Source: a virus (taxonomy: Duplodnaviria; Heunggongvirae; Uroviricota; Caudoviricetes). From it: a DNA stretch of 64,000 nt. Shown one piece after another: positions 8,725-37,835 of the stretch (position 1 is its first letter; the number at the start of each line of letters is the position of its first letter). The position numbers and the translations under genes are program-made. Below the pieces are notes generated by a model, which worked only from the letters and a program-made list of their open reading frames with translations, was not told the origin of the DNA and ran no database searches. Location: positions 37,455 to 101,454 of IMG/VR virus record IMGVR_UViG_3300042472_000628; one strand, written 5' to 3'.

Positions 8725-10152
8725 ATGAAATTAGTAGACGCTTTAAGACAAGAAGACATTTTAACAGAAAATGGCATGGCCACAAACTCAAGCTCATTAA
8801 ATGCTTGCGTAGATTTATTCTTTAACATTGGTGCAATGAGAGGCCAAGACAAACAACGTTTGATCGCAACCTTTTCGAAAGCGTTCAATGAAGATCCTAG
8901 ACGTGCAATGAAATTGTTATTTTGGGCACGTGATGTTAGAGGTGGTGCAGGTGAACGTCAAGTTTTCAAAGACATCTTAGTTTACTTAGCTGAGAATCAT
9001 GACTTGGTTTTAAAACCAAACTTACACTTGATTTCAGAATATGGTCGTTGGGATGACTTGTTAGTTCTTACAGGAACTTATTTAGAGAAAGAAGCATTTA
9101 CATTAATCTCAGATGCAATCATTGCTGAGAATGGTTTATGTGCTAAATGGATGCCACGTAAAGGTGCAGTAGCTGAAAAGTTACGTAAATTTACAGGTAT
9201 GTCACCAAAACAATATCGTAAATCATTAGTTGGTTTGACAAGTGTTGTTGAAACTAAAATGTGTGCTAAAGATTGGGACTCTATCGAGTTTGGTAAATTG
9301 CCATCAGTAGCATCAGCACGATACCAAAAAGCATTTGGTAAAAATGCATACGAAAGTTATTCAGCTTACATCGCTTCTTTAGTGAAAGGTGAAGCTAAGA
9401 TCAATGCAGGTGCAGTATATCCATATGATGTGATTAAGTCATTGACTCATGGAAATGCAACAGTTGCTAACGAGCAATGGAAAGCTTTACCAAACTACAT
9501 GGAAGGTGCAAACGATATGATTTTACCAGTTGTGGATGTTTCGGGTTCAATGTCAAGTCCAGCAAGTAAAACTGTAACTTGTATGGATGTTGCAATCTCT
9601 TTAGGTCTTTATATTTCTGAAAGAAATGAAGGTGCTTTTAAAGATGCATTCGTTACATTCTCAGATAATCCAAAATTACAAGTAGTTTCTGGATCTTTAG
9701 CTGACAGATATGCACAAATGTCGACAGCTGATTGGGGAATGAGTACAAACTTAGAAGCTACATTTAAATTGATTTTAGATCAAGCTACTAAGCACAAATT
9801 ATCTCAAGACGAAATGCCAAATAAAATCTTAATCTTATCAGATATGGAATTTAATTCGGCAACTGGTTCTAGAGGTTGGGGAAGTAATAGAACTGAAGCT
9901 TGGAATCCAACTGCTCAACAAATGATTGAGAACATGTACGATGTAGCAGGTTACACAATGCCTCAAATCGTTTATTGGAACATTCAATCCAGAAATGGTG
10001 GTGTACCAGTAGCATTTGACAAAGCGGGAACTGCATTGGTATCAGGATTCTCGCCAGCAATTATGACAAGTTTGCTTGGAGGTGATATTGAATCACCACA
10101 ACAAATAATGGATAAAACAATCTTGAGCGAGAGATACGCTCCAATTGTTTAG
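8725..10152 (+). CDS. Ro60/TROVE-related RNA-binding protein with C-terminal vWA domain (DUF2828-like)
   Basis: TENG, LFWARDVRGGAGER, YGRWDDL, AKWMPR, LPSVA and KINAGAVYPY; vWA MIDAS DVSGSM, ILSDMEF, YWN, LVSGFSP. Confidence 0.85.
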   Translation: MKLVDALRQEDILTENGMATNSSSLNACVDLFFNIGAMRGQDKQRLIATFSKAFNEDPRRAMKLLFWARDVRGGAGERQVFKDILVYLAENHDLVLKPNLHLISEYGRWDDLLVLTGTYLEKEAFTLISDAIIAENGLCAKWMPRKGAVAEKLRKFTGMSPKQYRKSLVGLTSVVETKMCAKDWDSIEFGKLPSVASARYQKAFGKNAYESYSAYIASLVKGEAKINAGAVYPYDVIKSLTHGNATVANEQWKALPNYMEGANDMILPVVDVSGSMSSPASKTVTCMDVAISLGLYISERNEGAFKDAFVTFSDNPKLQVVSGSLADRYAQMSTADWGMSTNLEATFKLILDQATKHKLSQDEMPNKILILSDMEFNSATGSRGWGSNRTEAWNPTAQQMIENMYDVAGYTMPQIVYWNIQSRNGGVPVAFDKAGTALVSGFSPAIMTSLLGGDIESPQQIMDKTILSERYAPIV

Positions 10153-10159
10153 ATATATA
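10152..10159 (+). promoter_or_regulatory. Putative late promoter driving the non-coding locus
   Basis: GATATATAATAAA, with no ORF downstream before the terminator at 10506. Confidence 0.6.
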
Positions 10160-10171
10160 ATAAAAGAAATT

Positions 10172-10232
10172 AGGTTCCTTACAGCAAACAATACACAAGC
10201 AATTACAAATTAAGCAAAAAGGAATGGAACCT
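10172..10232 (+). ncRNA. Candidate small structured RNA 1 (closing stem + TACAGCAA), possible Ro60 ligand
   Basis: AGGTTCC(10172-78) pairs with GGAACCT(10226-32). The stem is followed by N-TACAGCAA and an A-rich loop. Confidence 0.5.
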
Positions 10233-10234
10233 GG

Positions 10235-10494
10235 CGGATAGGTACAGCAAAAAGTACAAACACAGCTATGATAGAGTCTAGATAAAAACGTGGAGTTTTA
10301 AAATGGTTCGCCCTCTAAAACAGTGAAGCGCTAGACAAGGTGAAGGTTAACACTAGAAAATGGATCACAAGTCATACCACCCCAATAGGTGCAATTAGGA
10401 TGTAGTCGAAGTATAGTAGACTCTCGCGAAAGCAAAGCCGAAGACTATAAAGAGGGTTATTCTGCCGAGAAGAAAATCACGAACAACTATCCCG
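10235..10494 (+). ncRNA. Candidate structured RNA 2 (about 260 nt, closing stem + TACAGCAA)
   Basis: CGGATAG(10235-41) pairs with CTATCCCG(10487-94, one bulged C); same N-TACAGCAA after the stem. Inner helices CCCTCT/AGAGGG and TGTAGTC/GACTATA, plus a GC-GAAA-GC tetraloop. GC-richer than the flanks; no ORF. Confidence 0.5.
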
Positions 10495-10505
10495 TATTAG
10501 ATTAG

Positions 10506-10553
10506 AATCCTGGTAAAAATTGTTAATAACTTTTTTAACCAGGATTTTTTTTT
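10506..10553 (+). terminator. Rho-independent terminator overlapping the next early-type promoter
   Basis: AATCCTGGT ... ACCAGGATT followed by a T tract. Confidence 0.8.
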
Positions 10554-10576
10554 GTCAATTATTATTCGTATATTAG
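10519..10576 (+). promoter_or_regulatory. Putative early promoter
   Basis: ATTGTTaatAACTTTT ... TGTCAA-N10-TATATTAG. Confidence 0.7.
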
Positions 10577-10601
10577 CTTTATAATTAAAAACAAACAAAT
10601 T

Positions 10602-11336
10602 ATGCCACAAATATTTAAAGTAGGAGGTTGTATTAGAGATAAGTTTCTCGGAGTCGACTCAAAGGACATAGATTTCACATTCGTTTTAGACGATTTAAGT
10701 GGAACAGTAGAAGATGGTTTTCAAATCATGACGGATTGGATGACTGAAAGAGGATTTGAAATATTCTTAAGTACTCCAGATTGTTTTACGATTAGAGCTA
10801 AGTTTCCAAAAGATCACCAATTCACTGGACTTGTTGCAGATTTTGTAATGGCAAGAAAAGAAGTCGGTTACACTGAAGGAACTCGTCGACCAATCTTAGA
10901 ACTTGGAACTCTCGAAGATGATTTACTTCGTCGAGATTTCACAGTCAATGCTTTAGCAGAAGATATTGATGGAAACCTTATTGATCTTTTTGGTGGAGTA
11001 GATGACCTAAAAGCCGGTATTTTAAGAACTCCATTGGATCCACGTATCACTATGATGGACGATCCATTGAGAATCTTAAGAGCTCTTAGATTTACAATCA
11101 CTAAAGATTTGACAATGTCTATGGATATTTGGGAAGCTATTCAGCAACCAGGAATCTTAAAGAAATTAGAATTGACAGTAAGTAGCCAAAGAATCAGAGA
11201 CGAGATTGAAAAAATGATGAAATTTAATACCGTTAGAAGTTTTAGACTTTTAATGGATGTAGATGCTATCATTCCAGGATTTTTAGAATTAATCTTCAAA
11301 GATGGAATGTGGTTAATGCCAACCTTTAAACAATAA
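10602..11336 (+). CDS. cca: Class II tRNA nucleotidyltransferase (CCA-adding / poly(A) polymerase family), compact
   Basis: VGGCIRD, DIDF, RRDFTVNAL, DDPLRILRALRF; only 244 aa. Confidence 0.85.
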   Translation: MPQIFKVGGCIRDKFLGVDSKDIDFTFVLDDLSGTVEDGFQIMTDWMTERGFEIFLSTPDCFTIRAKFPKDHQFTGLVADFVMARKEVGYTEGTRRPILELGTLEDDLLRRDFTVNALAEDIDGNLIDLFGGVDDLKAGILRTPLDPRITMMDDPLRILRALRFTITKDLTMSMDIWEAIQQPGILKKLELTVSSQRIRDEIEKMMKFNTVRSFRLLMDVDAIIPGFLELIFKDGMWLMPTFKQ

Positions 11337-11340
11337 TATT

Positions 11341-11994
11341 ATGATAAACAATTTAGAATTAATTAGACCTTTATTGAACTTCGAAAAGAAGGGTGACTTT
11401 TACATGCTTTATGTTTTTAAACGTAAGAAAGATCAACCTGAAGGCGAACGAGATAATCATCAATCAGTAAGAACTATTAAGACTTATTGTATTGAAAGTA
11501 TTGACCATTTGGAACGTAGATGGGATGAGATTATTCAATTATGTGAGATGTTTAAGGCACGTGCTTATATTCATGTACAAAAACAAAATCACTTTGATGT
11601 GTCACTTAATATGATGGTTGCACTTGCACAAAGAATTCAAGATGGTAACACAAATCAAAAGGGACTATTCGATTCTGTTGTTGGTCAAATCAAAACTCAA
11701 GAAAAGAGATGGATCATTGATGTAGATGATATGATGGAAGCTAGTCCAGTGATGATGGCTTATATTGAATACAATTGTGCACCGATTACTAAAGTTAAAT
11801 TTGATGAAGCAGGAATGCCAATTGGGTATGAAGTTGGTCCAAAAATTGAAGCGATCATTCCAACTAAGAATGGTCATCATTTAATCACTAAGAAGTTCGA
11901 CGTAATGAAGTTCAAAGAGGCTTATCCTGATTTAGATATTCAAAAGAAGAATCCTACACTATTGTACTATCCTGATAGTCTAGAAAATTGTTAA
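11341..11994 (+). CDS. Hypothetical protein, possible AEP (primase-polymerase) superfamily fold
   Basis: WIIDVD (DxD), TKNGHH (xxGxH), LDIQK. Confidence 0.4.
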   Translation: MINNLELIRPLLNFEKKGDFYMLYVFKRKKDQPEGERDNHQSVRTIKTYCIESIDHLERRWDEIIQLCEMFKARAYIHVQKQNHFDVSLNMMVALAQRIQDGNTNQKGLFDSVVGQIKTQEKRWIIDVDDMMEASPVMMAYIEYNCAPITKVKFDEAGMPIGYEVGPKIEAIIPTKNGHHLITKKFDVMKFKEAYPDLDIQKKNPTLLYYPDSLENC

Positions 11995-12044
11995 CAACTT
12001 TTATTACTAATATTTTTTTATGTCAATTATTATTCGTATATTAG
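11987..12044 (+). promoter_or_regulatory. Putative early promoter
   Basis: ATTGTTaacAACTTTT ... TGTCAA-N10-TATATTAG. Confidence 0.7.
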
Positions 12045-12069
12045 CTCTATAATTAAAAACAACTATAAT

Positions 12070-12456
12070 ATGAAAAATTACAAAATGTACAAAGGACAAA
12101 ATCTTAAGATTGATAATATAATTATTAGCGCAAATACTGTCGTTAATGTATTGCAAGAAAATTCAACTTCGGCTGTGGTAGAAACGGTTTATTCAAATCA
12201 AGGAACAAGATTTCAATGTTCTCTTTATGACCTAAATGAATTAAATAGAATGGTAACCGAAGATATAAAGTTAGATTATTCTAAGATTAATAATGTAACA
12301 GTTGGAGGAATTGACATGGAAGATTATGGAGATTTTTGTGATGCATACATTGAATCTGCAGATTACGGAGATCGCGAAATGAGTGAAAAGGAATTGGACA
12401 TCTTAAATGAAGATAGCCAATTTGTTAATGAGTCAGTATTTGCTCAACTTTATTAA
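12070..12456 (+). CDS. Hypothetical acidic early protein
   Basis: ORF after the early promoter; C-terminal GIDMEDYGDFCDAYIESADY motif. Confidence 0.7.
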   Translation: MKNYKMYKGQNLKIDNIIISANTVVNVLQENSTSAVVETVYSNQGTRFQCSLYDLNELNRMVTEDIKLDYSKINNVTVGGIDMEDYGDFCDAYIESADYGDREMSEKELDILNEDSQFVNESVFAQLY

Positions 12457-12465
12457 AGGCAAAGC

Positions 12466-12493
12466 GAAACAAAATAAGTCTAATACATATAAT
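12466..12493 (+). promoter_or_regulatory. Putative middle promoter GAAAC-N17-TATAAT (heads the modification-like cluster)
   Basis: Exact spacing match to the other copies. Confidence 0.7.
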
Positions 12494-12507
12494 AATAAAC
12501 ACTTCAC

Positions 12508-12810
12508 ATGAACAAAACTAATATTTTAGAAGAAGCTAACAAAATTGTTAATGAACGCTCAGAAGAAAAAGAACGCATGTATGGACCTTTCGAAGAAGGT
12601 ATGCGAAGAGCTGCAATGATTTTTAATGGCATGACTGGTAAAGAAATGAATGGATCTGACATGTATGCAGCTTTAGTTGCACTTAAATTGAGTCGTCATT
12701 CATATAATTATAAACAAGATAATCTATTAGATGCAGTTGCATACTTAGGTGCTCTTGACAACTATGTTGAAAAACATGGTTATGGTGAATCAGAAGATCC
12801 TATTAAATAA
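12508..12810 (+). CDS. DUF6378-like small helical protein, putative dNTP diphosphohydrolase
   Basis: ILEEANKIVNERSEEKERMYG ... ALKLSR ... DNLLDAVAY pattern. Confidence 0.6.
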   Translation: MNKTNILEEANKIVNERSEEKERMYGPFEEGMRRAAMIFNGMTGKEMNGSDMYAALVALKLSRHSYNYKQDNLLDAVAYLGALDNYVEKHGYGESEDPIK

Positions 12811-12816
12811 TATCAT

Positions 12817-13890
12817 ATGTCAGAATTTAAGTACTTAACAGACTATGTTACCGATAAGTCGTCTCGTATAGCGATTGCAGCCTTAGTTGGTAAATTAAGT
12901 CCAAAGGAAAGCTCACACAAAAGCGGTTGGGCATTTCATTTAGCTAATCAAATAACTAACTTGGGATTTGAAAGAGTAGATGTCATTACAGATACTGAAA
13001 CCAAATGGCAAGATTACGACTGTATTCTTATCGAACATGGTATGGAATTCAAAGGTACTTTTAATATTTTTGGTGGTGCGAACGATGATTTGTACCACCA
13101 ATTAATTCGTATCAAAAGTGGTGTACAGATGTATAGTTTACATCATGATATGCCATGTATTGCTACACTTATCGAACAAAGACTTAAAACTGGAACTGAC
13201 TTATTTAAATCTATCGAACCAGATATCGAACCAATAAGAGAAATTTGTGCAAACGATATTCCAAGAATTGATCACATTGCTAAAACAGAAAAACTTTGTT
13301 TTGGTGATAGCCATTCATTTAGTCAATATACACCGGGTTACATGACTCAACGTCATGATGGTTTGACTATGCATGGTGCACTTAAACGAGGTCTAGACAC
13401 ATATGTATATCCATGGATCACTGATCTTAGGGTCTACATGGGTAACATTGATGTGAGACATCATTTAATGAGACAAGATAATCCTTCAGCTTCTGTTAAA
13501 AATCTTATGATTAAATATGAACAAGAATTATTGAAACTACAAGAACGCGGTGTTACCAATATTGAAGTAATACATTGTTTACCTATTGAAAACGAATCAA
13601 GAGTGTTGCCTAAAACAGGTTACTATAAAGGAACGCCATATACTGGAACTTGGTCAGAACGTGCAGCTTTAGTCAAAGAAATTAATTCATCTATCGATGA
13701 TATGTGTCAAAGAAATGGATGGAAATCATATAAACATCCAGAAGTGTATTTTAATGCACTTAACGAATTGACATTTGATGTTATGGAAAAACCAAAATCA
13801 GTACACATTGCCCGTGAATTTTACAGATGGGATGTTGCTAAGAATGAACCTAACAAAAAACTAATTAAACAAACGCTTGCACTTTTTTAA
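12817..13890 (+). CDS. Hypothetical protein with C-terminal SGNH-like domain
   Basis: FGDSHS, YMGNIDVRHH, KSVH. Confidence 0.5.
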   Translation: MSEFKYLTDYVTDKSSRIAIAALVGKLSPKESSHKSGWAFHLANQITNLGFERVDVITDTETKWQDYDCILIEHGMEFKGTFNIFGGANDDLYHQLIRIKSGVQMYSLHHDMPCIATLIEQRLKTGTDLFKSIEPDIEPIREICANDIPRIDHIAKTEKLCFGDSHSFSQYTPGYMTQRHDGLTMHGALKRGLDTYVYPWITDLRVYMGNIDVRHHLMRQDNPSASVKNLMIKYEQELLKLQERGVTNIEVIHCLPIENESRVLPKTGYYKGTPYTGTWSERAALVKEINSSIDDMCQRNGWKSYKHPEVYFNALNELTFDVMEKPKSVHIAREFYRWDVAKNEPNKKLIKQTLALF

Positions 13891-13891
13891 A

Positions 13892-14041
13892 ATGGAAAAG
13901 AATGATGAAAAATACAAAATAGAAATAACGTACACTAATGGTACGATAGAGATATTAGAAATTAAAACAAATGAATTAGAATGGTCTATGATGCAATATC
14001 AAAGAAATAGAGATCCTTTTAATTGGAAAGTAATTAAGTAA
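13892..14041 (+). CDS. Small hypothetical protein (49 aa), absent from the ORF track
   Basis: ATG at 13892 to TAA at 14041 (MEKNDEKYKIEITYTNG..) fills the gap between neighbours exactly. Confidence 0.6.
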   Translation: MEKNDEKYKIEITYTNGTIEILEIKTNELEWSMMQYQRNRDPFNWKVIK

Positions 14042-14042
14042 T

Positions 14043-15251
14043 ATGCAAATAAAAACTACCAGATACTATGAAGAATTCCTAAGATATTATGATCTTGCAC
14101 TTAAACAACAAGAGCTTAGTAATTTAGGTCATATTCCTCATCATGAAAGTGATGTTAATGACGAGTTAATGCACCATATTGAATTATATGATGTAGTAGA
14201 ACGTAAATTTGCAGGATTCTCAGCAATCATCAACGATTGTTTTTATGGTTGGACAGAAGATCATCCATATTGGTCTCGTATGGATGCAGGACTTTACACA
14301 CCACAAAGATTTGAGATTGCAAATAATTGGACAAACAAACAAAGAGTATTTGGATTAGAAGAGTGGCTTTATGTGTTTATATTACACAGAGTTTGTGGAT
14401 CTGCAATTAATTATGCAACCAAACCTTCTGGTTATCACAATACAATATTGCCATCTTTACATGATTGTAATACAATTGAAGAAATGTGTGAAAAGATTAA
14501 ATATCATCCAACACCATTTTATACTTCAGTTGGTTATCAATTTCCGGCATTTCCAAAACCACCTACACCAACTTCAGACGAAGATAGTTTTGTAGGTATG
14601 TCATCGTTTAAAAAACCAGAATATGTTTACAAACGAGGTGGAGATTATTTCTTATGTGAATATGCACCAAGATTAGCAAGAGATATGGCAACATATCTAA
14701 CAACTGGTGATAAAAAAGACTTAAGAGAATTAGGTGATTGGATGTTTAAGTGGAATGCAGACAATGGTTTAAGAGCTTATAGATTTCAATACGCTGCAGT
14801 AATTGCAGATGTTGCAGATTGGTTCCCAGAATATATGAACAGAGAATCTATGTTTTATTATGGAACAAATGCAGTAGAATGTATTGGTTATTTGGCAGAT
14901 CCAGTTTCAGGTGGTGGCAAGAAAAGTGAAGAATTCTTAGATTCTGTTATGAATAAGATCTATGAAGATACAGGATCATTGCCATATAACGCAGAAGATG
15001 TGGCCTGCGATTATATTAGATGGATCGAAAACTACTTAAGACCGGGAGCAGACTATGCCCACATCAACATGGACACTCTATGGAACTCTTCATCAATAAA
15101 CGATCATCCATTTGGTAGACAAAAAGCTATGTTAGATTTAGGTCTTGTAGAGACTTTCAATGGTATGACTTCGTTTCCATCAGATGACAAGATATTACAA
15201 GCTGCTGGAGTTTCAGTAGAAGATTATAAAAAAATGGTAAGTAAACTATGA
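14043..15251 (+). CDS. Amino acid:DNA transferase / aGPT-PPlase-like protein (HhH glycosylase fold) 1
   Basis: LHRVCGS, FQYAAVIAD, YYGTNAVECI and NAEDVACDYIRW resemble the family pattern. Confidence 0.55.
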   Translation: MQIKTTRYYEEFLRYYDLALKQQELSNLGHIPHHESDVNDELMHHIELYDVVERKFAGFSAIINDCFYGWTEDHPYWSRMDAGLYTPQRFEIANNWTNKQRVFGLEEWLYVFILHRVCGSAINYATKPSGYHNTILPSLHDCNTIEEMCEKIKYHPTPFYTSVGYQFPAFPKPPTPTSDEDSFVGMSSFKKPEYVYKRGGDYFLCEYAPRLARDMATYLTTGDKKDLRELGDWMFKWNADNGLRAYRFQYAAVIADVADWFPEYMNRESMFYYGTNAVECIGYLADPVSGGGKKSEEFLDSVMNKIYEDTGSLPYNAEDVACDYIRWIENYLRPGADYAHINMDTLWNSSSINDHPFGRQKAMLDLGLVETFNGMTSFPSDDKILQAAGVSVEDYKKMVSKL

Positions 15252-16375
15252 TTAACGACCAACAAGTAGTAAGAGAACCTCAGTGCGATATTGAACCTAA
15301 AAGAAAGGCTTCAAGTATAATTCAGAATAAATTATTTGAATTTGAAGATGACACTAATATGGTTTATAATAATATTTCATATGAAGGCACTTCAGATATT
15401 ATCATGCATAATGGTAAACCTAAGGAAAGCTGGATGAAAGATTGGACTCAAGAACAACGTTTTGATAAATTCTTTGAATTTTGTCATGCGTTTGATAAGA
15501 GACAAGATAAATTATTATCAGAAGATTATCAAATATTTTCACACAGATTACATTGGCACGAACATCCATACTGTTATATGATGCAAAATGAAACTAATCT
15601 AGAAAAGCTTCTTTATTATACGATAGTATTCTCATTCAGTAATGAACATTGGGGAACTATTATGAGGTTGATTAATGAAGGTGAAGAAAAAACAAGAGAA
15701 CACTTTGTTGAAAACAGACATGCACGTAATGATCTATTTCAAATCTATTATCCTAAAGGTACACAAGTTAAAGATTGGTTATTAGAAGGACCTAAAAAAG
15801 CAGCCAAAGATATGGCTTATGTTTTAGAAAATCTAGAGAGACCATATACGATGATGGAATTTGCAAAAATTCTAGAAAAGTATTTTAAAGAACACCAAAA
15901 CTTTAGAAGTCCATTATATCCATGTAAGAACACTGCACGATATGTTGCAATGAGTAGACCAGATCTTGTAGATCCTGAGTCAATTCTTTTTGGTGGAACA
16001 GGACACTTTGATGGTATGATGCAAATCTTTGGAGGACCAAACTTAAATGGTAAAGTAAAATATTCTATTGACAAAGATGGACAATTTATAGCAGAAAACA
16101 AGTATGCTGAAATGTGGATTGAACAAATGCATATTTTAGCTAATCATCCAAACAACCCAATGACTAGTCAAAAGATGTTAAACGTAGAAGATAAAACGTG
16201 CTTCATGTATAAGCATATTGCAATTAGTCATGGTATTAAATCTCCAACTAAGAGAATTCCATACACATGGATTTTTGATGGAGCATTCAATTTAGCAAAA
16301 CATCCCACAGAAAATATTATAGTAAATGCTGAAACAACTCGATACTTGTGGGGTAAAGATTATCCTAACGAATAA
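15248..16375 (+). CDS. Amino acid:DNA transferase / aGPT-PPlase-like protein 2 (paralog)
   Basis: KNTARYVAM, FGGTGHFDGM and NVEDKTCFMYKH parallel the motifs of the preceding gene; ATGA overlap. Confidence 0.45.
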   Translation: MINDQQVVREPQCDIEPKRKASSIIQNKLFEFEDDTNMVYNNISYEGTSDIIMHNGKPKESWMKDWTQEQRFDKFFEFCHAFDKRQDKLLSEDYQIFSHRLHWHEHPYCYMMQNETNLEKLLYYTIVFSFSNEHWGTIMRLINEGEEKTREHFVENRHARNDLFQIYYPKGTQVKDWLLEGPKKAAKDMAYVLENLERPYTMMEFAKILEKYFKEHQNFRSPLYPCKNTARYVAMSRPDLVDPESILFGGTGHFDGMMQIFGGPNLNGKVKYSIDKDGQFIAENKYAEMWIEQMHILANHPNNPMTSQKMLNVEDKTCFMYKHIAISHGIKSPTKRIPYTWIFDGAFNLAKHPTENIIVNAETTRYLWGKDYPNE

Positions 16376-16386
16376 AAATAAAGAAA

Positions 16387-17058
16387 ATGAAAAATAAAGC
16401 AGAAGATGCATGGCAAATCCTAAGAATTCAAGGAGAATTTACAAAAGGATTTGATACATTTAGCGAACTGGGCCCATGTATTTCCGTATTCGGAAGTGCA
16501 AGAACCAAAGTTGCAACTAAATGGTATGAAGAGGCAAAATTATTCGGCAAACTAATTGCATGTGAAGGTTTTGGTGTAATTACAGGAGGTGGTCCTGGTA
16601 TTATGGCAGCAGCTAATCATGGCGCAAAAGAAGTTGGTGGTAAATCTATTGGAATTGGAATTGAATTGCCATTTGAAGCAGGAATGAACAAGTATGTTGA
16701 CCTTGGAGTTGAGTGTAGGTATTTCTTTACACGTAAAGTTATGTTCTTAAAATACTCACAAGCGTTTGCAGTATTTCCTGGAGGTCTTGGTACAATGGAT
16801 GAATTATTTGAAGCTATTACATTAGCACAATGTGGACATAATGTAAAATACCCAATAGTTTTAGTTGGTAAAGAATACTGGACAGGATTAGTAGATTGGC
16901 TTAGAAACGTTGTACTTGAAAATGGTAAAATGAGTGATAAAGATTTTGATCTATTTAGAATCGTAGACAGTGCAGAAGAAGCAAGAGATAAAATCATGGA
17001 ATATCATAACAAATATATGACAGATCCAGAATATTTAGGAAGTAAAACAAATTTTTAA
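16387..17058 (+). CDS. LOG family (TIGR00730-type) nucleotide monophosphate phosphoribohydrolase
   Basis: SVFGSAR, TGGGPGIM, YFFTRK, PGGLGTMDELFE. Confidence 0.9.
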   Translation: MKNKAEDAWQILRIQGEFTKGFDTFSELGPCISVFGSARTKVATKWYEEAKLFGKLIACEGFGVITGGGPGIMAAANHGAKEVGGKSIGIGIELPFEAGMNKYVDLGVECRYFFTRKVMFLKYSQAFAVFPGGLGTMDELFEAITLAQCGHNVKYPIVLVGKEYWTGLVDWLRNVVLENGKMSDKDFDLFRIVDSAEEARDKIMEYHNKYMTDPEYLGSKTNF

Positions 17059-17060
17059 TT

Positions 17061-17957
17061 ATGTCACACGATAAACACACAAATAGTAATAGAAATCAGG
17101 ATCTAAATCTAATGATGCCAAATAGACAGGCTTGGTTAGATTTAGCAGGTGATTGGAAAGATCCATTCGATTCTCCTAAAATTGTAGAACATGATGGATT
17201 TAACGTAGTTCGAGAAGATTTAATGGGCTTTGGATCTAAATGTAGATTTGGTGACATCTTAGTTAGTAAATGTCAAACAGATACATTAGTATACGTTCAA
17301 CCTCGTTTTGGTTTTGCTGGAATTTCATTGGCATATTTAGCTGAAAAGTACAATAAGAAATTGGTCTTATTTAGTCCATCTCAAAAAGAGATTTCAGATC
17401 ATCAAGCTATTTGTATTGAGAATGGCGCTGAAATGAAATTTAAAAGAATCGCAGCAATGCCAAATCTGAATGCACATGCAAAAAGATGGGCTGAAGAAAA
17501 CAATGCAACTTTTATTCCATTAGGTTTAAAACATGAATTAGTTACAGCGGCTGCAGTTAAAGTAGCTTATGATCTTGCAGAGGAACATGGATACCCGAAA
17601 GAAGTTTGGTCTGCTATTTCAACAGGAGTTTTACAAAGAGCTTTACAAATCGCATGGCCAGATGCAGACTTTAATGCAGTGGCAGTTGCACGTAATATCA
17701 AAGATGGTGAATTAGGAAGAGCAAATGTATGGTCACATCCTAAACAATTTAATCAAGATGTAGATGCTGCATATATGCCACCGTTTCCTTCAGCTACTAA
17801 CTATGATGCAAAAGCATGGGAATTTATGAAAAAACATGGAAATCCAGGTGCATGGTTTTGGAATGTAGGTGGAGATCCTAAACCAAAACAAATGACTACT
17901 AAAGAAACTGTTAATTCTCAAAGAGGATGGGGAGAAGTTTTGGAAATGGATCAATAA
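17061..17957 (+). CDS. PLP-dependent enzyme, fold type II
   Basis: VVREDLMGFGSKCR (Schiff-base Lys), AISTG, YDAKAW, FWNVG. Confidence 0.75.
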   Translation: MSHDKHTNSNRNQDLNLMMPNRQAWLDLAGDWKDPFDSPKIVEHDGFNVVREDLMGFGSKCRFGDILVSKCQTDTLVYVQPRFGFAGISLAYLAEKYNKKLVLFSPSQKEISDHQAICIENGAEMKFKRIAAMPNLNAHAKRWAEENNATFIPLGLKHELVTAAAVKVAYDLAEEHGYPKEVWSAISTGVLQRALQIAWPDADFNAVAVARNIKDGELGRANVWSHPKQFNQDVDAAYMPPFPSATNYDAKAWEFMKKHGNPGAWFWNVGGDPKPKQMTTKETVNSQRGWGEVLEMDQ

Positions 17958-17963
17958 AAACCT

Positions 17964-17991
17964 GAAACTAAATTAAAAATATTCATATTAA
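17964..17991 (+). promoter_or_regulatory. Putative middle promoter (variant GAAAC-N17-TATTAA)
   Basis: Upstream of the dUTPase and polymerase N-terminal half. Confidence 0.5.
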
Positions 17992-18010
17992 TACTATAAC
18001 AAAATAAAAA

Positions 18011-18478
18011 ATGGCAAACATAGACAACGAATGTAAAGATCTAGAAGTACAAGACTTTTACGACCAATCGACAACACACTTAGAAGATATTATGTCGCAT
18101 CAAAAAGAGATGCAAGAAAAAACTTATGGAATTAAGTTTGACGAAATGTCAATTAGAGAAGTAATGAATTTTTGGCATGTTAATACTCACGCAGTTATTG
18201 ATGAGTTACATGAAATGACAGATGCTCTTGGTGGTATTAAAGATGGCTCTGGAAATGCAGTATGGAAATACTGGAAAAAAGACTTCTCAAAATATGAAAC
18301 TATGAAAGTTTCAGATCTATCAGAAGATGATCGTAAAGAGTTGTTCATGGAATGGATCGATGTATTACATTTCTTTATTAATTATGCAGCATCAATTGGC
18401 CTAGATGCAAAAACAGCATATAATTATTATTTCGCAAAAGCAGAAGAGAATAAAAACCGTCAAAAACGAGGCTATTAA
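18011..18478 (+). CDS. All-alpha dimeric dUTPase/dCTPase (gp56-like, MazG superfamily)
   Basis: DELHEM, KYWKK, EWIDVLHF, KAEENKNRQKRGY. Confidence 0.8.
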   Translation: MANIDNECKDLEVQDFYDQSTTHLEDIMSHQKEMQEKTYGIKFDEMSIREVMNFWHVNTHAVIDELHEMTDALGGIKDGSGNAVWKYWKKDFSKYETMKVSDLSEDDRKELFMEWIDVLHFFINYAASIGLDAKTAYNYYFAKAEENKNRQKRGY

Positions 18479-19890
18479 TGTTATTAGATATAGAACAAAC
18501 CGAAAAGGAACTAATAGTTTCATATTACGACAAAGAAGGAAAGGTTTCCTTCAAGAGATATTCTGTAAACCAATTCCAAAATTGGGTAGTCACAGAAGAA
18601 AAAGATAAGCATAAAGATAGTACCTATAGAAATTGGGACAATAGACCACTTAAAAGAGGTATTGCAAAATCTTTTAATAAATTTAGTTTGTTATATTTCA
18701 TGGACTCTTTGCCTGAAAAAGACAAAGAAGAGATCTATGAATTTAATATGCCACGAACATACTTCGTCGATATTGAAACCGAGATCGTTGATGGTTTCCC
18801 AAAACCAGAAGAGGCTAAGTCTCGTATCTTAACATTTTCAATTATTACGCCTGAACGTAAAGCAATTGTATTAGGTCTTGAAGATTTAACATCAGAACAA
18901 ATTGCTAAAATTGAAAAGGATACTAATGCACACTTAAAAAACTACGACACTGATTGGGACTTTTCATATCATAAGTTTGATGATGAGTACAATATGTTGT
19001 ATACATTCTTACATAAGTTTTTGCCTAAGTTCCCAATGATGACAGGGTGGAACTTCATTAACTATGACTGGCAGTATATAGTCAATAGATGTAAACGATT
19101 ACAGATTGACCTGACTGAAGTGGCAATCACTGGTAGCTTAGACAAGACAGATCAGCGACCAATGCACATGGGAATTTTGGATTATATGCAATTGTATGAT
19201 AAATATGACAGATCAGTTGCTGTAAAAGAATCAAATTCATTAGACTTTGTTTCTGGTGCAGTATTAGATGTTAATAAAATCAAATACAGCGGATCATTAA
19301 CAGATCTTTATAATAATGATTTTACAAAGTATGTTTTTTATAACGTAATTGACTCGTGTCTTGTATATTATATAGATCGACAATTAAGATCAATGGAAGT
19401 ACTTTTAACATTAGCAACTATTACAAGAATGCCTTTATATAAAGCTTCGTCACCTGTGGCAATCACAGAAGCTTTGTTAGCAAGAAAACTAGCAGAAACA
19501 AATAAAAAGATTGGTATAGAATACGGCAAAGCAGATTCTCTTAAAGAAGGTAAATTTGAAGGAGCATTTGTAAAGCAACCTATTGTTGGTTATTATAGTG
19601 GAGTAAGTGCATTTGACTTTGCATCACTATATCCTTCAATCATGAGACAGTTTAATATTTCTCCCGAGTCATTCGTTGAACAAGTTCCTGAATCTGAAAT
19701 TATCGAAAGACGAAAAGATACAGCTGTAATTGTTTGTGAAAATGGTGTAGTATTTAAGAAAGAAGACTCAATTCTTAAAAAGATTCTAAGTGATTTATAT
19801 GCTCAGCGTAAAGATTACAAAGCTACTTCATATAAATATTATGAAAAAGCACATGAGCTAGAAAAAAAACTAAAAAAAATTAAAAATTAA
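18478..19890 (+). CDS. gp43: Family B DNA polymerase, N-terminal half (3'-5' exonuclease + motif A)
   Basis: ExoI FVDIET, ExoII GWNFINYD, ExoIII YNVIDS, motif A DFASLYPS. Ends after RKDYK in the fingers. Confidence 0.9.
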   Translation: MLLDIEQTEKELIVSYYDKEGKVSFKRYSVNQFQNWVVTEEKDKHKDSTYRNWDNRPLKRGIAKSFNKFSLLYFMDSLPEKDKEEIYEFNMPRTYFVDIETEIVDGFPKPEEAKSRILTFSIITPERKAIVLGLEDLTSEQIAKIEKDTNAHLKNYDTDWDFSYHKFDDEYNMLYTFLHKFLPKFPMMTGWNFINYDWQYIVNRCKRLQIDLTEVAITGSLDKTDQRPMHMGILDYMQLYDKYDRSVAVKESNSLDFVSGAVLDVNKIKYSGSLTDLYNNDFTKYVFYNVIDSCLVYYIDRQLRSMEVLLTLATITRMPLYKASSPVAITEALLARKLAETNKKIGIEYGKADSLKEGKFEGAFVKQPIVGYYSGVSAFDFASLYPSIMRQFNISPESFVEQVPESEIIERRKDTAVIVCENGVVFKKEDSILKKILSDLYAQRKDYKATSYKYYEKAHELEKKLKKIKN

Positions 19891-23225: not shown

Positions 23226-23274
23226 TTTGAGTATCATCGAATTGTACCCCTCCTCCGATAGTATCGTTGGATCG

Positions 23275-23304
23275 AAGGCTTAGAGAAATCTAAGCCTTTT
23301 CTTT
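23275..23304 (+). terminator. Rho-independent terminator
   Basis: AAGGCTTAGA-GAAA-TCTAAGCCTT followed by T. Confidence 0.85.
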
Positions 23305-24111: not shown

Positions 24112-25320
24112 ATGACAATCGAAGAGTTAGAAAATAAATCAATTGACCAACTAACAGATGATGAGGCGAAGTTGCTTATAGACCACTATAAGCAACTTTC
24201 TGCCAAATTCACTGCGTATGAACAAGCAGTTAAGTTAACTCTAAACTCTATCTATGGAGCCTTTGGTAACAAATGGTTCCACTTTTTTAATCTAGATATC
24301 GCAGAATCAATTACCAAACAAGGTAAAAATGCAATCCTTTATTCAGAAACAATACTTAACAAATATGTTAATGATTTCTGGCATAAGGACACTGCGGTTC
24401 ATGAACAATTTGGAATTAAGGTTAAAGGTAAAGTTGAAAAACCAGCAGTAATCTATATTGACACCGATTCATGTTATGTGCAGTTTCAAGATTTATACGA
24501 ATCAATTATATGGTTAGATGAATCTAAGAAATTGACAATTGATGAATTCGTTCTAGCATTTTATGCATATCGTCTTAAAGACTATATCATGAAATGTATG
24601 GAGAAATATGCTGAAAAGAGAAATACTGATAACTTCTTAGTGTTCGAATTAGAATCACTTGCATACAATGGTATTTGGATGAGTAAAAAGAAATACATTC
24701 AAAATATTGCATGGGATGATAAGTTAGAAGTAACTGATCGTCACCCATCATTAAAGAAAGTAAAAACTATTGGATTCGATACGATCCAATCTTCAACTCC
24801 AAAATTTGCAAGAGAGAAATTAGTAGAATGTCTTAGAATTCTTTTTACTTCTAGAGTAACACCAACTGCAAATGAATTGCAACAATTGGTTGAATTCATG
24901 AAAAAATGTAAGAAGGAATTTAAGTTAGCAAATATTGATGACATCTCTTTTAATAAGAGAACCAACAATATTGATCAGTACATTATTGACGATCAAAAAG
25001 AATTGCAAATTGGACTAAAATGTCCAGCCAACGTAAAAGCTGCAGGATACTACAACTATATTTTAAATAACAATAAGAAATATAAGAACAAGTATAAACA
25101 TATCCAAAATGGTGAGAAGCTTAAGATCTACAATTGTATAGGAACTATTAGTGAAGTCTATGCATTTATGCCAAACGAATATCCTTATGAAATTGCACCA
25201 CAAGTTGATTACGATACTCAATTTGAGAAAGCAATGATTGATCCGCTAAATAGAGTACTTACTGCAATTGGTTTACAAACATTGGACACAAACTTAATTT
25301 ATGCTTCGGCACTATTTTAA
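24112..25320 (+). CDS. gp43: Family B DNA polymerase, C-terminal half (motifs B, C, thumb)
   Basis: KLTLNSIYG, YIDTDS, KKKY, C-terminal clamp-binding-like ASALF. Confidence 0.9.
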   Translation: MTIEELENKSIDQLTDDEAKLLIDHYKQLSAKFTAYEQAVKLTLNSIYGAFGNKWFHFFNLDIAESITKQGKNAILYSETILNKYVNDFWHKDTAVHEQFGIKVKGKVEKPAVIYIDTDSCYVQFQDLYESIIWLDESKKLTIDEFVLAFYAYRLKDYIMKCMEKYAEKRNTDNFLVFELESLAYNGIWMSKKKYIQNIAWDDKLEVTDRHPSLKKVKTIGFDTIQSSTPKFAREKLVECLRILFTSRVTPTANELQQLVEFMKKCKKEFKLANIDDISFNKRTNNIDQYIIDDQKELQIGLKCPANVKAAGYYNYILNNNKKYKNKYKHIQNGEKLKIYNCIGTISEVYAFMPNEYPYEIAPQVDYDTQFEKAMIDPLNRVLTAIGLQTLDTNLIYASALF

Positions 25321-26861: not shown

Positions 26862-27150
26862 TGAAGATAAACTTCCAATCAAGTATATTCTAGGAATAGA
26901 AAAAGAGATTGTGGGTTATCCTTCAGGATTCGATATTCTTTTAGCAGAAATTAAATTATGTGTCAGAATGCCTGATAGACATAAAGGTAATTTCACTTTA
27001 CATGCTCTAAAAACTTATAGATTTCCAGAAACAGATGAAACACATCTTTTAACTTCTATTCAAGACTTAGTAAATCTTGATTTGGTCGAAGTCCTAAATG
27101 ATTCAGAAGGTAAAGAATCGTGGACAATTAAAACAAACCCATTCGAATGA
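26851..27150 (+). CDS. Hypothetical protein (possible winged helix)
   Basis: ORF overlapping both neighbours; helix-helix-wing-like C-terminus. Confidence 0.55.
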   Translation: MKINEDKLPIKYILGIEKEIVGYPSGFDILLAEIKLCVRMPDRHKGNFTLHALKTYRFPETDETHLLTSIQDLVNLDLVEVLNDSEGKESWTIKTNPFE

Positions 27151-27719
27151 TATTAGTAATAGACGATTTTATTAAAGACAAAGAATTATTAAGAGAAATA
27201 TCTCAAGATGTAAACTTCTTCAATGATCCAGGTATTTATTACTGGTGGGATGGTTGGTGGAACGGTGAAGCAAAGACTGTAAAACATAGATTAATCGAGG
27301 CTATTTGGGCAGATAACTGTCCACTTAGCCAACCGATGTCTATTAGAGGTTTTGAATACTGGACTGGAATTCAAACAGCTAACACAGAAACTGGATTCAG
27401 CAATAACTTAGGTAATCATTATGACAAAGATGAGGAACTATATGCACTTACAGGTGAAATAGTAACACCATCAATTGGCACAGTATATTATCCAGAACAA
27501 GATCAATTTGAAGGTGGTATGTTAGAAATTTATACTGAAGGTATTGATAAAAAACCAGAAGTAGTTTATGCCAAACCTAATAGATTAATAATTTTTGATG
27601 CTGGAAAATATGTACATGCAGTGACTCAAGTAACTCAAGGTACTAGAAAAGCTATAGCTATTAATCTATGGCTGACAGAACCAATGGGTAAACAAAACGG
27701 CGCTATGCGCATAGAATAG
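27147..27719 (+). CDS. 2OG-Fe(II) oxygenase (prolyl-4-hydroxylase-like)
   Basis: HYDKD (HxD), GGMLEI, KPNRLIIFD, distal H in YVHAV, RKAIAIN. Confidence 0.85.
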   Translation: MILVIDDFIKDKELLREISQDVNFFNDPGIYYWWDGWWNGEAKTVKHRLIEAIWADNCPLSQPMSIRGFEYWTGIQTANTETGFSNNLGNHYDKDEELYALTGEIVTPSIGTVYYPEQDQFEGGMLEIYTEGIDKKPEVVYAKPNRLIIFDAGKYVHAVTQVTQGTRKAIAINLWLTEPMGKQNGAMRIE

Positions 27720-32280: not shown

Positions 32281-32298
32281 AAATAGAATATATAATAA

Positions 32299-36242: not shown

Positions 36243-37835
36243 ATGGCAGGATTTAACGACAGAAACGGACCATTAAGTAATGGATCAAGACCTTTTAGCA
36301 TTTCAAATGCTTTAAAGTCATTGTCTTCGTTTGGTATGCGCTATGATGATTTAGTCTTAAGACAATCACAAGCAATTGGACCAATGGAAGCCGAAATTGG
36401 TTATGGTCAAATGAACCCGTTTGGTCTAGACAATGATGACATATATGGAGCATTCGCTGCAATGTCAATGACCGACATTAATTTAAGATCTAATATTCCA
36501 TTTTTTGATAAATCATATGAAAGCAAAAGAGAAGAGCTTAGAAGATTTTCACTTAACGATGAGATTGAAGATATTTTAGATATTCTTTGTGATGAGACTA
36601 TTGTATATGATGAAAAAAACTTTTTTTGTTACCCTGAAATTTTAGGTATTGATATATCTGATGATGTTGACAAAGATCTTAATAAATATTTCAGACAAAT
36701 CTATCACTACTTTGGATTTAACTCCGATCAATCGGCATGGTACTTCTTTAGAAAATTCTTAATTGATGGATATTTGGCATTTGAGATCATTTATTCACCG
36801 GATCAAAAAGAAGTTATTGGATTTAAAGAATTAGATCCTATTACACTTATCCCAGGTTATAATCACGATGATGGTAAAAAAGTTTGGGTACAATACAAAG
36901 ATGATCCAATTAGAGAACGTAAACTATATGATTCTCAAATTATATACATTTCATACTCTTCGATAACTACAGCATCGAGAGTTTCTTACATCGAAAGATT
37001 AACAAGAGCATTTAACTTATTGAGAATCATGGAACATACCAGAGTTATTTGGGCTGTTACCAATGCATCTTTTAGAATGAAATTTGTTATACCTGTCGGT
37101 GGTAAATCTAAGACTAGAGCGAAGCAATCACTTTCTCAGTTAATGAACTCTTATAAAGAATCAGTAGATTTTGATTGGGAATCAGGTACATTAGCAACAG
37201 ATGGTAAACCAATGTTACAATTTAGTAAAGAGTATTGGCTGCCTTCGAAAGACGGTGAATCACCAGAAATTGAAACACTTAACAGTGATGGACCAGATTT
37301 ATCAGATACAGAAGCACTTAAATATTTCTCAGATAAATTAAAACACGTTTCAAAAATCCCTTACTCAAGATTCTTATATGAAGATGGTGGTGGAGATTTT
37401 AACTTGGCTGCTGATGGTATGATTAGAGATGAGATTAAATTTGGTAAATTTATCAAACGTTTAAGATCGATCTTTATGGAAATTTTATCTAAGCCATTAT
37501 TTATTCAAATGTGTCTTAAATACCCAGAATTTACAAACGATCCACAATTTAAAACACAAGTTGCCCTAAGATTTAATGAAGAGAACGTATTCTCAGAATT
37601 AAAAGACATGGAATTAATGGAAAAACGATTAGAATTCATCGGTACTATGAGAGATAGCTTGATGACAACTAATCAAGAAACAATGGAAGAAGAATACTAC
37701 TTTGATCAAGAATACCTAGTTAAGAAATATCTTAAACTAAGTGATGATGAAATTAGAGGTAACGAAGCTGCTAAATCTAAGTTAAAGAAAACAACGGCCC
37801 AAGAGCCAGAAGCTGAAGATCCATTCGCAATGTAA
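36243..37835 (+). CDS. gp20: Portal protein
   Basis: EIEDILDILCDE, FLIDG, YWLP, EIETL, LKYF, VSKIPYSR, RDEIKFGKFIKRLR. Confidence 0.93.
   Translation: MAGFNDRNGPLSNGSRPFSISNALKSLSSFGMRYDDLVLRQSQAIGPMEAEIGYGQMNPFGLDNDDIYGAFAAMSMTDINLRSNIPFFDKSYESKREELRRFSLNDEIEDILDILCDETIVYDEKNFFCYPEILGIDISDDVDKDLNKYFRQIYHYFGFNSDQSAWYFFRKFLIDGYLAFEIIYSPDQKEVIGFKELDPITLIPGYNHDDGKKVWVQYKDDPIRERKLYDSQIIYISYSSITTASRVSYIERLTRAFNLLRIMEHTRVIWAVTNASFRMKFVIPVGGKSKTRAKQSLSQLMNSYKESVDFDWESGTLATDGKPMLQFSKEYWLPSKDGESPEIETLNSDGPDLSDTEALKYFSDKLKHVSKIPYSRFLYEDGGGDFNLAADGMIRDEIKFGKFIKRLRSIFMEILSKPLFIQMCLKYPEFTNDPQFKTQVALRFNEENVFSELKDMELMEKRLEFIGTMRDSLMTTNQETMEEEYYFDQEYLVKKYLKLSDDEIRGNEAAKSKLKKTTAQEPEAEDPFAM

Follow-up and report, generated by a model that had tools for sequence, protein, structure and literature searches.

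A conserved gene cassette beside the DNA polymerase gene of a marine T4-like phage and its probable role in pyrimidine hypermodification

Genes at the locus and their conserved core

We analysed a DNA stretch of 64,000 nt (the window hereafter), covering positions 37,455 to 101,454 of the IMG/VR record IMGVR_UViG_3300042472_000628, and focused on a run of nine open reading frames (ORFs) that ends with a family B DNA polymerase gene. The whole record (165,454 bp, CheckV completeness 61%) belongs to an uncultured marine T4-like phage. An earlier reading made from the letters alone (the sequence-only reading) had described the run as a base-hypermodification cassette directly upstream of the polymerase gene. 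We confirmed the nine ORFs at the positions first noted, all on the + strand and with intergenic gaps of -14 to +53 nt (Table 1), and we are fairly confident that the cassette serves the hypermodification of a pyrimidine in DNA. The evidence supports a cassette built on amino acid:DNA transferase (AADT)-type proteins together with a pyridoxal phosphate (PLP) enzyme of the phage M6 gp52 family, much as the sequence-only reading had it, and the enzyme set differs from that of every characterised pathway.

Table 1. Features of the cassette and its immediate surroundings (positions in the window).
Feature	Length	Position	Strand	Basis or remark
ATATAATAA motif, candidate phage promoter at the head of the run		12487..12495	+	lead only
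DUF6378 protein, core member	100 aa	12508..12810	+	PF19905 1.1e-11, above cut-off
P0003, two-domain alpha/beta protein, SGNH-type motifs in the C-terminal half	357 aa	12817..13890	+	motifs
Small ORF, TTG start	54 aa	13877..14041	+	conserved in related loci
P0001, core, AADT-like helix-hairpin-helix (HhH) fold, proposed catalytic Cys322	402 aa	14043..15251	+	predicted structure
P0002, accessory, distant P0001 paralogue, proposed catalytic Cys318	375 aa	15248..16375	+	predicted structure
LOG-family nucleotide phosphoribohydrolase, accessory	223 aa	16387..17058	+	PF03641, TIGR00730
P0004, predicted fold-type II PLP enzyme, M6 gp52 decarboxylase family	298 aa	17061..17957	+	phrog_7093
T4 gp56-type dCTPase/dUTPase	155 aa	18011..18478	+	BLASTP to T4 gp56
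N-terminal (exonuclease) half of the split family B DNA polymerase		18478..19890	+	PF03104, PF00136

The genes P0001, P0002 and P0003 are real: they have 925, 419 and 502 database relatives, respectively (representative clusters in the case of P0003), and synteny is kept in 64 loci. The relatives of P0001 and P0002 are metagenomic and all unnamed, and many of them are marine. We examined 80 related IMG/VR loci and counted as a complete cassette the joint presence of P0003, P0001 and the PLP gene, which was found in those 64. The DUF6378 gene accompanied 61 of the 64 complete cassettes and the gp56-type gene 52, where, with 2 exceptions, it lies downstream of the PLP gene; the polymerase gene was also present in 51 of the 52 gp56-bearing cassettes. 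P0002 (34 of 64) and LOG (13 of 64) were present less often, and all four combinations of their presence and absence occur. One divergent locus carried the P0003, P0001 and PLP trio in a different order. The core consists of DUF6378, P0003, P0001, the PLP enzyme and gp56, and P0002 and LOG are accessory. The sequence-only reading had set apart the second paralogue, the SGNH-like gene and LOG as additions to the characterised pathways; this holds for the paralogue and LOG, which are dispensable, but not for P0003, which belongs to the conserved core and is fused elsewhere to a transferase-type domain.

Other lineages carry further genes at the same site. In the complete 256-kb relative G001 (cassette at 9684-15423 of locus L094), a thioredoxin gene is located between P0003 and P0001, at the position of the small ORF, and a GT2 glycosyltransferase gene and a UDP-galactopyranose mutase gene are found in the cassette of this lineage between the PLP and gp56-type genes. 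Because P0002 and LOG are optional and other lineages insert GT2, mutase and thioredoxin genes, the locus is a modification island in which a fixed core is combined with variable genes.

The sequence-only reading had named P0004 a fold-II PLP enzyme, and its family membership is consistent with this. P0004 matched phrog_7093 at 9.9e-40 over profile positions 15-278 of 279. The archetype of this PHROG is M6 gp52 (2.2e-159 against the same profile), an experimentally proven PLP-dependent decarboxylase of an amino acid attached to DNA (PMC8989533), and the two proteins have a C-terminal motif in common (BLASTP 8e-4). The match of P0004 to Pfam PALP (1.4e-5, 25 bits) remained under the cut-off of 35, and K60 in GSKCR is the candidate PLP lysine, judged by eye. 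Among cultured phages, relatives of P0004 were found only inside a ParB-DNA methyltransferase fusion, gp1 of Erythrobacter phage vB_EliS_R6L. In this protein (807 aa), which is annotated only as a methylase, an M6 gp52-type PLP domain is combined with a ParB-like domain and an N6/N4 DNA methyltransferase domain; the fusion is independent evidence that the gp52-type PLP domain works on DNA. A gene resembling 3'-phosphoadenosine-5'-phosphosulfate (PAPS) reductase is located near R6L gp1.

The all-alpha dUTPase/dCTPase proved to be a homologue of T4 gp56 (BLASTP 6e-18, 30% identity over 97 aa), whose two best PHROGs, 173 and 18650, are also those of the cassette protein; its gene abuts the N-terminal half of the polymerase gene. 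The LOG label was likewise borne out, by PF03641 (3.1e-31, 108.7 bits), by TIGR00730 (2.8e-43, 147.7 bits) and by the motif PGGxGTxxE, present as PGGLGTMDE in the translation. For the first gene of the run the DUF6378 assignment stood, while the name pyrophosphatase that had been attached to it could not be verified; against the Protein Data Bank (PDB), this protein gave no meaningful sequence match, only a spurious one to a designed PPR protein. The small ORF was recovered by tblastn in 57 of the 80 related loci, at 39-62% identity.

Helical proteins P0001 and P0002 and their partner P0003

Sequence searches of P0001 and P0002 against Pfam, NCBIfam and PDB, both with single sequences and with profiles, returned no match, and Pfam gave none even at an E-value of 10. 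We therefore describe their folds from AlphaFold (AF2) models built on family alignments, which reached a predicted local distance difference test (pLDDT) score of 82.6 and a predicted template modelling (pTM) score of 0.83 for P0001, and 80.1 and 0.80, respectively, for P0002. The models were compared exhaustively with 48,161 solved chains using VIA-align. For both proteins the top solved match was 8z2m_A, gp46 of phage PaMx11 or PUGT (P0001: Z 8.7, root-mean-square deviation 4.0, 207 residues; P0002: Z 8.6, 4.1, 223 residues). PUGT is the 5-phosphomethyl-dU (5-PmdU) glycinyltransferase, whose nucleophile, Cys247, attacks the pyrimidine at C6 (PMC11472151). The second-best match was the queuine salvage enzyme Qng1/DUF2419 (Z 8.3 for P0001 and 6.8 for P0002), followed for both models by a coherent list of HhH DNA glycosylases, namely OGG, AGOG, AlkA, Mag1, Nth and MutY. 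The HhH fold of the two large proteins, on which the sequence-only reading had staked its proposal, was thus recovered for both of them.

Several independent leads pointed in the same direction. The Foldseek neighbours of P0001 in AFDB and BFVD were HMUDK_hel and 'Amino acid:DNA transferase' proteins, and those of P0002 included the P0001 family (9.5e-4 and 6.2e-4), aGPT-Pplase clade 1 (9.2e-4) and the HMUDK_hel protein of phiRSL1 (7e-3). Protein-language-model neighbours of P0001 and P0002 carry the same families (HMUDK_hel, aGPT-Pplase and AADT), and UniProt homologues with 52-56% identity are automatically named 'Amino acid:DNA transferase domain-containing'. Foldseek searches of P0001 against PDB gave nothing significant, and the fold was resolved only by the exhaustive VIA-align search. 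As the Foldseek and language-model results agree with that search, we consider that P0001 and P0002 share the HhH architecture of the AADT proteins. A cysteine is conserved as well, Cys322 in P0001 and Cys318 in P0002; each is invariant within its own family, and both align with Cys247 of PUGT and belong to an ExxxC motif. When P0001, P0002 and PUGT were aligned with six natural fusion proteins, only 3 columns were invariant, and one of them is that of Cys247.

The sequence-only reading had also called the two large proteins paralogous. Direct comparison of P0001 and P0002 by BLASTP and hhalign was not significant; nonetheless they are distant paralogues, because they match each other's families in Foldseek, because the metagenomic protein P0307 matches the family hidden Markov models (HMMs) of both (6e-17 and 2e-8), and because they share motifs in the same order, the last of which is N-x-E-D-x-x-C. 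A search of 50,697 records of cultured phages, by DNA and by protein, found no P0001-like or P0002-like gene.

P0003 gave no sequence match in Pfam, NCBIfam or PDB, as a single sequence or as a profile. The blocks GDSHS, Gly187, GNID and SVH are invariant across 16 relatives, and Lipase_GDSL matched two members of the family only, weakly (E-values of 0.02 and 0.04). The earlier description of P0003 as SGNH-like is therefore plausible on its motifs, although no Pfam model matched P0003 itself. We also compared P0003 with the beta-glucosyltransferase (beta-gt) of T4. The N-terminal halves aligned at equal positions with a BLASTP E-value of 0.077, and the C-terminal halves gave an hhalign E-value of 0.016 with a probability of 2.8%; neither result is significant.

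The association of P0003 with P0001 is shown by gene fusion. Six full-length cluster representatives, P0271 among them (BLASTP 1e-65 and 3e-46), are natural fusions of a P0003-type N-terminal part with a P0001-type C-terminal part. Another metagenomic protein, P0256 (981 aa), combines an FkbM-type methyltransferase, an HMUDK_hel domain (4.5e-11, above cut-off) and a P0003-type domain, and in the Aeromonas phages 31, 44RR and AS4 a P0003-type part is followed, in one protein, by a C-terminal region that matches HMUDK_hel weakly. These architectures mirror the kinase plus helical-domain form of some 5-hydroxymethyl-2'-deoxyuridine (5-hmdU) DNA kinases, with P0003 in the place of the kinase. We propose, from these sequence relationships, that P0003 may be the partner that activates the hydroxymethyl group instead of a kinase.

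Genomic setting and target base

The window has a G+C content of ~32%, and almost every gene is on the + strand. Its gene content is T4-like, with a split family B DNA polymerase, class I ribonucleotide reductase (RNR), UvsX, a gp41-type helicase, gp46/47-type nuclease subunits, a late sigma factor, and portal and head-completion genes. The polymerase that follows the run is of family B, as had been noted, but the gene in the run encodes only the N-terminal part of the split protein. The C-terminal half is located at 24112-25320, so that the two gene halves are 4.2 kb apart, separated by the genes of the small and large RNR subunits, a ferritin-like gene and a 247-aa ORF; the split is likewise kept in relatives. 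The N-terminal half shows that the modification island occupies the T4-type position; it is context, outside the pathway.

The run had been described as promoter-led. We did find the motif ATATAATAA at its head, but the number of copies in the window is within chance (7 observed versus 4.2 expected), and we regard the motif as a lead only. The seven copies, at 754, 10155, 12487, 22695, 32290, 47580 and 52122, are all on the + strand; six of them are 9-27 nt upstream of a gene start or of an ORF-free unit, and the copy at 32290 abuts an ATG. Neither a sigma-70 promoter scan nor TATAAATA showed enrichment. The first + strand terminator after the start of the run at 12508 was found at 23274-23299. 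Just upstream of the cassette, at 8725-11336, are genes for a Ro60/TROVE-like protein (DUF2828 and DUF7788) and a CCA-adding tRNA nucleotidyltransferase. Downstream, a 190-aa 2-oxoglutarate (2OG)-Fe(II) oxygenase gene (27147-27719) is located between uvsX and the gp41-type helicase gene. This oxygenase was considered as a thymine or 5-methylcytosine dioxygenase and dropped, as it matches 2OG-FeII_Oxy_3 and not Tet_JBP.

No hydroxymethylase or 5-hmdU kinase had been seen in the window, and the same was true when the search was extended to the entire 165-kb record. The record contained no match to the thymidylate synthase (TS) family, Tet/JBP, ADDT or HMUDK_hel, no homologue of the kinases M6 gp54 or PaMx11 gp49, and nothing in genome-wide scans with PF18724 and PF18723. 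A divergent TS-family protein was identified in three cassette-bearing relatives, G001, whose 256-kb genome is complete with terminal repeats, and the fragments G003 and G008. This protein shows ~30% identity to T4 gp42, with which it also shares its best PHROG. In these relatives the gp42-like gene has ClpX/ClpP neighbours, which were not found in the 165-kb record; the gp42-like region may belong to the missing part of the genome, or it may be absent.

At the specificity position, the gp42-like proteins of G001, G003 and G008 carry Asp, as does T4 gp42, while M6 gp58, a dUMP hydroxymethylase, and the ThyA of G003 carry Asn, the usual residue of TS and of dUMP hydroxymethylases. The Asn/Asp switch sets dUMP versus dCMP specificity, as exchange experiments with TS N177D and the T4 dCMP hydroxymethylase D179N have reportedly established. 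G001 and G003 also keep a canonical, Asn-type ThyA, and dTMP is therefore presumably made in the normal way in both.

The position of the cassette is informative too. It adjoins the DNA polymerase gene, and uvsX follows a short way downstream. This is near the polymerase-uvsX stretch in which T4-like phages keep their genes for the modification of 5-hydroxymethylcytosine (5-hmC) (PMC8056088). Moreover, P0003-type genes occur in the Aeromonas phages 31, 44RR and 25, in which genes 42 and 56 are present and no known glucosyltransferase is found (PMC2993671). On these sequence grounds (the gp56 homologue, the Asp-type gp42-like genes, the retained ThyA, the position near the polymerase-uvsX stretch, and the P0003-type genes of the Aeromonas phages) the target base is probably 5-hmC and not 5-hmdU.

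The sequence-only reading had instead taken thymidine, via 5-hmdU, as the substrate, so that both transferase paralogues, with the PLP enzyme, would generate an amino-acid-derived thymine adduct. We consider this unlikely. It is true that derivatives of 5-hmdU are the substrates of all characterised AADT and gp52-family enzymes (PMC8989533, PMC11472151), that 5-PmdU is the substrate of PUGT, the closest solved structure, and that gp56-type enzymes hydrolyse dUTP too. However, the record has no dUMP hydroxymethylase, Tet/JBP dioxygenase or 5-hmdU DNA kinase (5-HMUDK) homologue; the complete relative G001 has no HMUDK_hel match either, and ThyA is its only dUMP-type TS-family gene. The divergent TS genes of the relatives have the dCMP-type Asp, with an Asn-type ThyA for ordinary dTMP in two of them, and together with the gp56 homologue they make cytosine the likelier substrate. 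A similarly unlikely explanation is that P0003 is a diverged enzyme of the beta-gt type and that the main product is glycosylated hmC, which the helical proteins and the PLP enzyme would tailor or regulate, with no amino acid installed. P0003 has a colinear, weak likeness to T4 beta-gt in both halves, a similar length and the position of beta-gt in T4; a UDP-galactopyranose mutase gene adjoins the P0003-type gene of Aeromonas phage 25, and the G001 lineage has both GT2 and the mutase in its cassette. Yet the likeness is not significant, the window contains no sugar-nucleotide genes, and the GDS, GNID and H motifs with the weak GDSL matches suggest the fold of an esterase or acyltransferase. 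Nor would a route based on sugars alone explain the conserved cysteine and the gp52-family enzyme. The least probable of the explanations, and in our view a very improbable one, is that the cassette acts on free nucleotides and not on DNA. The helical proteins would then be nucleoside or nucleotide hydrolases of the Qng1 kind, working alongside LOG, the NTPases and RNR to remodel or salvage the precursor pool. The rank of Qng1/DUF2419 as the second-best structural match, the presence of LOG and two NTPase-type genes in the run and the RNR genes after it would fit such a role. LOG is missing, however, from 51 of the 64 cassettes, AADT and HMUDK proteins, which act on DNA, are the best neighbours among both solved and predicted structures, the invariant cysteine corresponds to the nucleophile of a DNA transferase, and the PLP domain is fused elsewhere to ParB and a DNA methyltransferase.

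Several points weigh against the reading that we prefer, in which hmC is modified by an amino acid transferase system. The likenesses of P0003 to SGNH proteins and to beta-gt are both weak and come from sequence comparison only. The Pfam models of the AADT/aGPT-Pplase/HMUDK_hel superfamily (PF18724, PF18746 and PF18723), ADDT and HMUDK_hel among them, do not match P0001 or P0002; Z values of 8-9 for all-helical proteins support a shared architecture only and are not proof of homology, and the MAFFT alignment that places the cysteines in the PUGT column was made at 15-18% identity. The record, 61% complete, is without a hydroxymethylase, and the assignment to cytosine rests on relatives whose P0001 is ~75% identical. 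Finally, G001 encodes two unlinked small P-loop kinases, possibly DNA kinases, and gp56 is also a dUTPase.

A proposed pathway and its relation to known systems

The fuller version of our proposal is a post-replicative, kinase-less hypermodification of cytosine with an amino acid, for which we judge the grounds for and against to be evenly balanced. We infer its chemical steps and the identity of the adduct from the observed folds, family memberships, conserved cysteine, fusions and synteny. In a first step, the gp56-type dCTPase and a gp42-type dCMP hydroxymethylase encoded elsewhere, seen in relatives only, would replace cytosine by 5-hmC during replication. P0003 and P0001 would then act as a pair, in which P0003 may convert the oxygen of the 5-hydroxymethyl group, by acylation for instance, into a leaving group; in the known thymidine pathways this job falls to the 5-hmdU DNA kinase. 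P0001, with its HhH fold and conserved cysteine, would flip the base, and Cys322 would attack C6 in the manner of PUGT Cys247; the leaving group would depart, and a nucleophile, most likely the side chain of an amino acid, would capture the exocyclic methylene. The gp52-family PLP enzyme could finally decarboxylate the attached amino acid and leave an aminoalkyl group. P0002 may serve as an optional second transferase for a different donor or sequence context, and LOG as an optional enzyme of the nucleotide pool.

The closest known systems are the thymidine pathways of the phages M6, ViI, PaMx11 and PhiW-14, which use a 5-hmdU DNA kinase, an amino acid:DNA transferase/aGPT-Pplase and a PLP decarboxylase (PMC5889632, PMC8989533, PMC11472151). 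The cassette resembles them in the HhH-glycosylase-like fold of the transferases with its conserved cysteine, in the PLP enzyme of the M6 gp52 family, in its clustering with genes of nucleotide metabolism and replication, and in the presence of a dNTPase that purges a canonical nucleotide. It differs from them in that it has no 5-HMUDK, that a two-domain protein of the P0003 type is the obligate and often fused partner, and that the associated hydroxymethylase is of the dCMP type. Further differences are that P0001 and P0002 are missed by the Pfam models, that tailoring genes of the radical SAM, FAD or acetyltransferase kind are lacking, and that the phages are large, marine and T4-like.

The other relevant comparison is with the hmC system of T4, which comprises gp56, gp42 and the alpha- and beta-glucosyltransferases. 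The gp56 homologue, the gp42-like genes of the relatives and the site by gene 43 are common to both, and P0003 is as long as beta-gt and faintly resembles it. In contrast to the T4 system, the cassette has no recognisable glucosyltransferase, and it has AADT-like and PLP enzymes. To our knowledge, enzymes of these two kinds are not known from any hmC system.

A third relative is the uncharacterised protein PHG31ORF233c (795-805 aa) of the Aeromonas phages 31, 44RR2.8t and AS4, whose N-terminal 330 aa are 33-35% identical to P0003 and whose C-terminal part gave weak HMUDK_hel matches (E-value of 0.003 in two of the phages). These phages are hmC-type relatives of T4 without glucosyltransferases (PMC2993671). 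Unlike the cassette, PHG31ORF233c is one fused protein, there is no PLP gene, and its neighbour in phages 31 and AS4 is a Na+/solute symporter gene. Alignments by hhalign of the P0001 or P0002 family with the C-terminal part of the phage 31 fusion were not significant, and the HMM search likewise showed no likeness to P0001. In phage 25 the P0003-type gene stands alone, next to the UDP-galactopyranose mutase gene. The cultured hmC-type Aeromonas phages offer a tractable entry point.

In the literature, we found no description of an AADT-type modification of cytosine or of a partner of the P0003 type, and the DNA of the phage probably carries an undescribed cytosine modification. We know of no AADT chemistry so far that acts on a base other than thymine or that does not depend on a DNA kinase. 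More tentatively, and with somewhat less confidence than in the pathway as such, we suggest that large marine T4-like phages make an undescribed cytosine base with an amino-acid-derived substituent on the 5-methylene of hmC. An esterase- or glycosyltransferase-like protein, and not a kinase, would activate the hydroxymethyl group for an AADT-type cysteine enzyme, and the optional modules (the second transferase, LOG, GT2 with UDP-galactofuranose synthesis, and thioredoxin) could give rise to a family of related new bases.

If true, this would extend AADT enzymology to a second base and would add a new way of activating a hydroxymethyl group, and the enzymes could be a source of new tools for the labelling of hmC in DNA. 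Marine and freshwater viromes are rich in these genes, which have hundreds of cluster representatives, and an unrecognised base could affect work on sequencing, restriction and host defence in a major group of phages. The proposal would also give a testable answer to a question open since 2010, namely the fate of hmC in T4 relatives without glucosyltransferases such as the Aeromonas phages 31, 44RR and 25.

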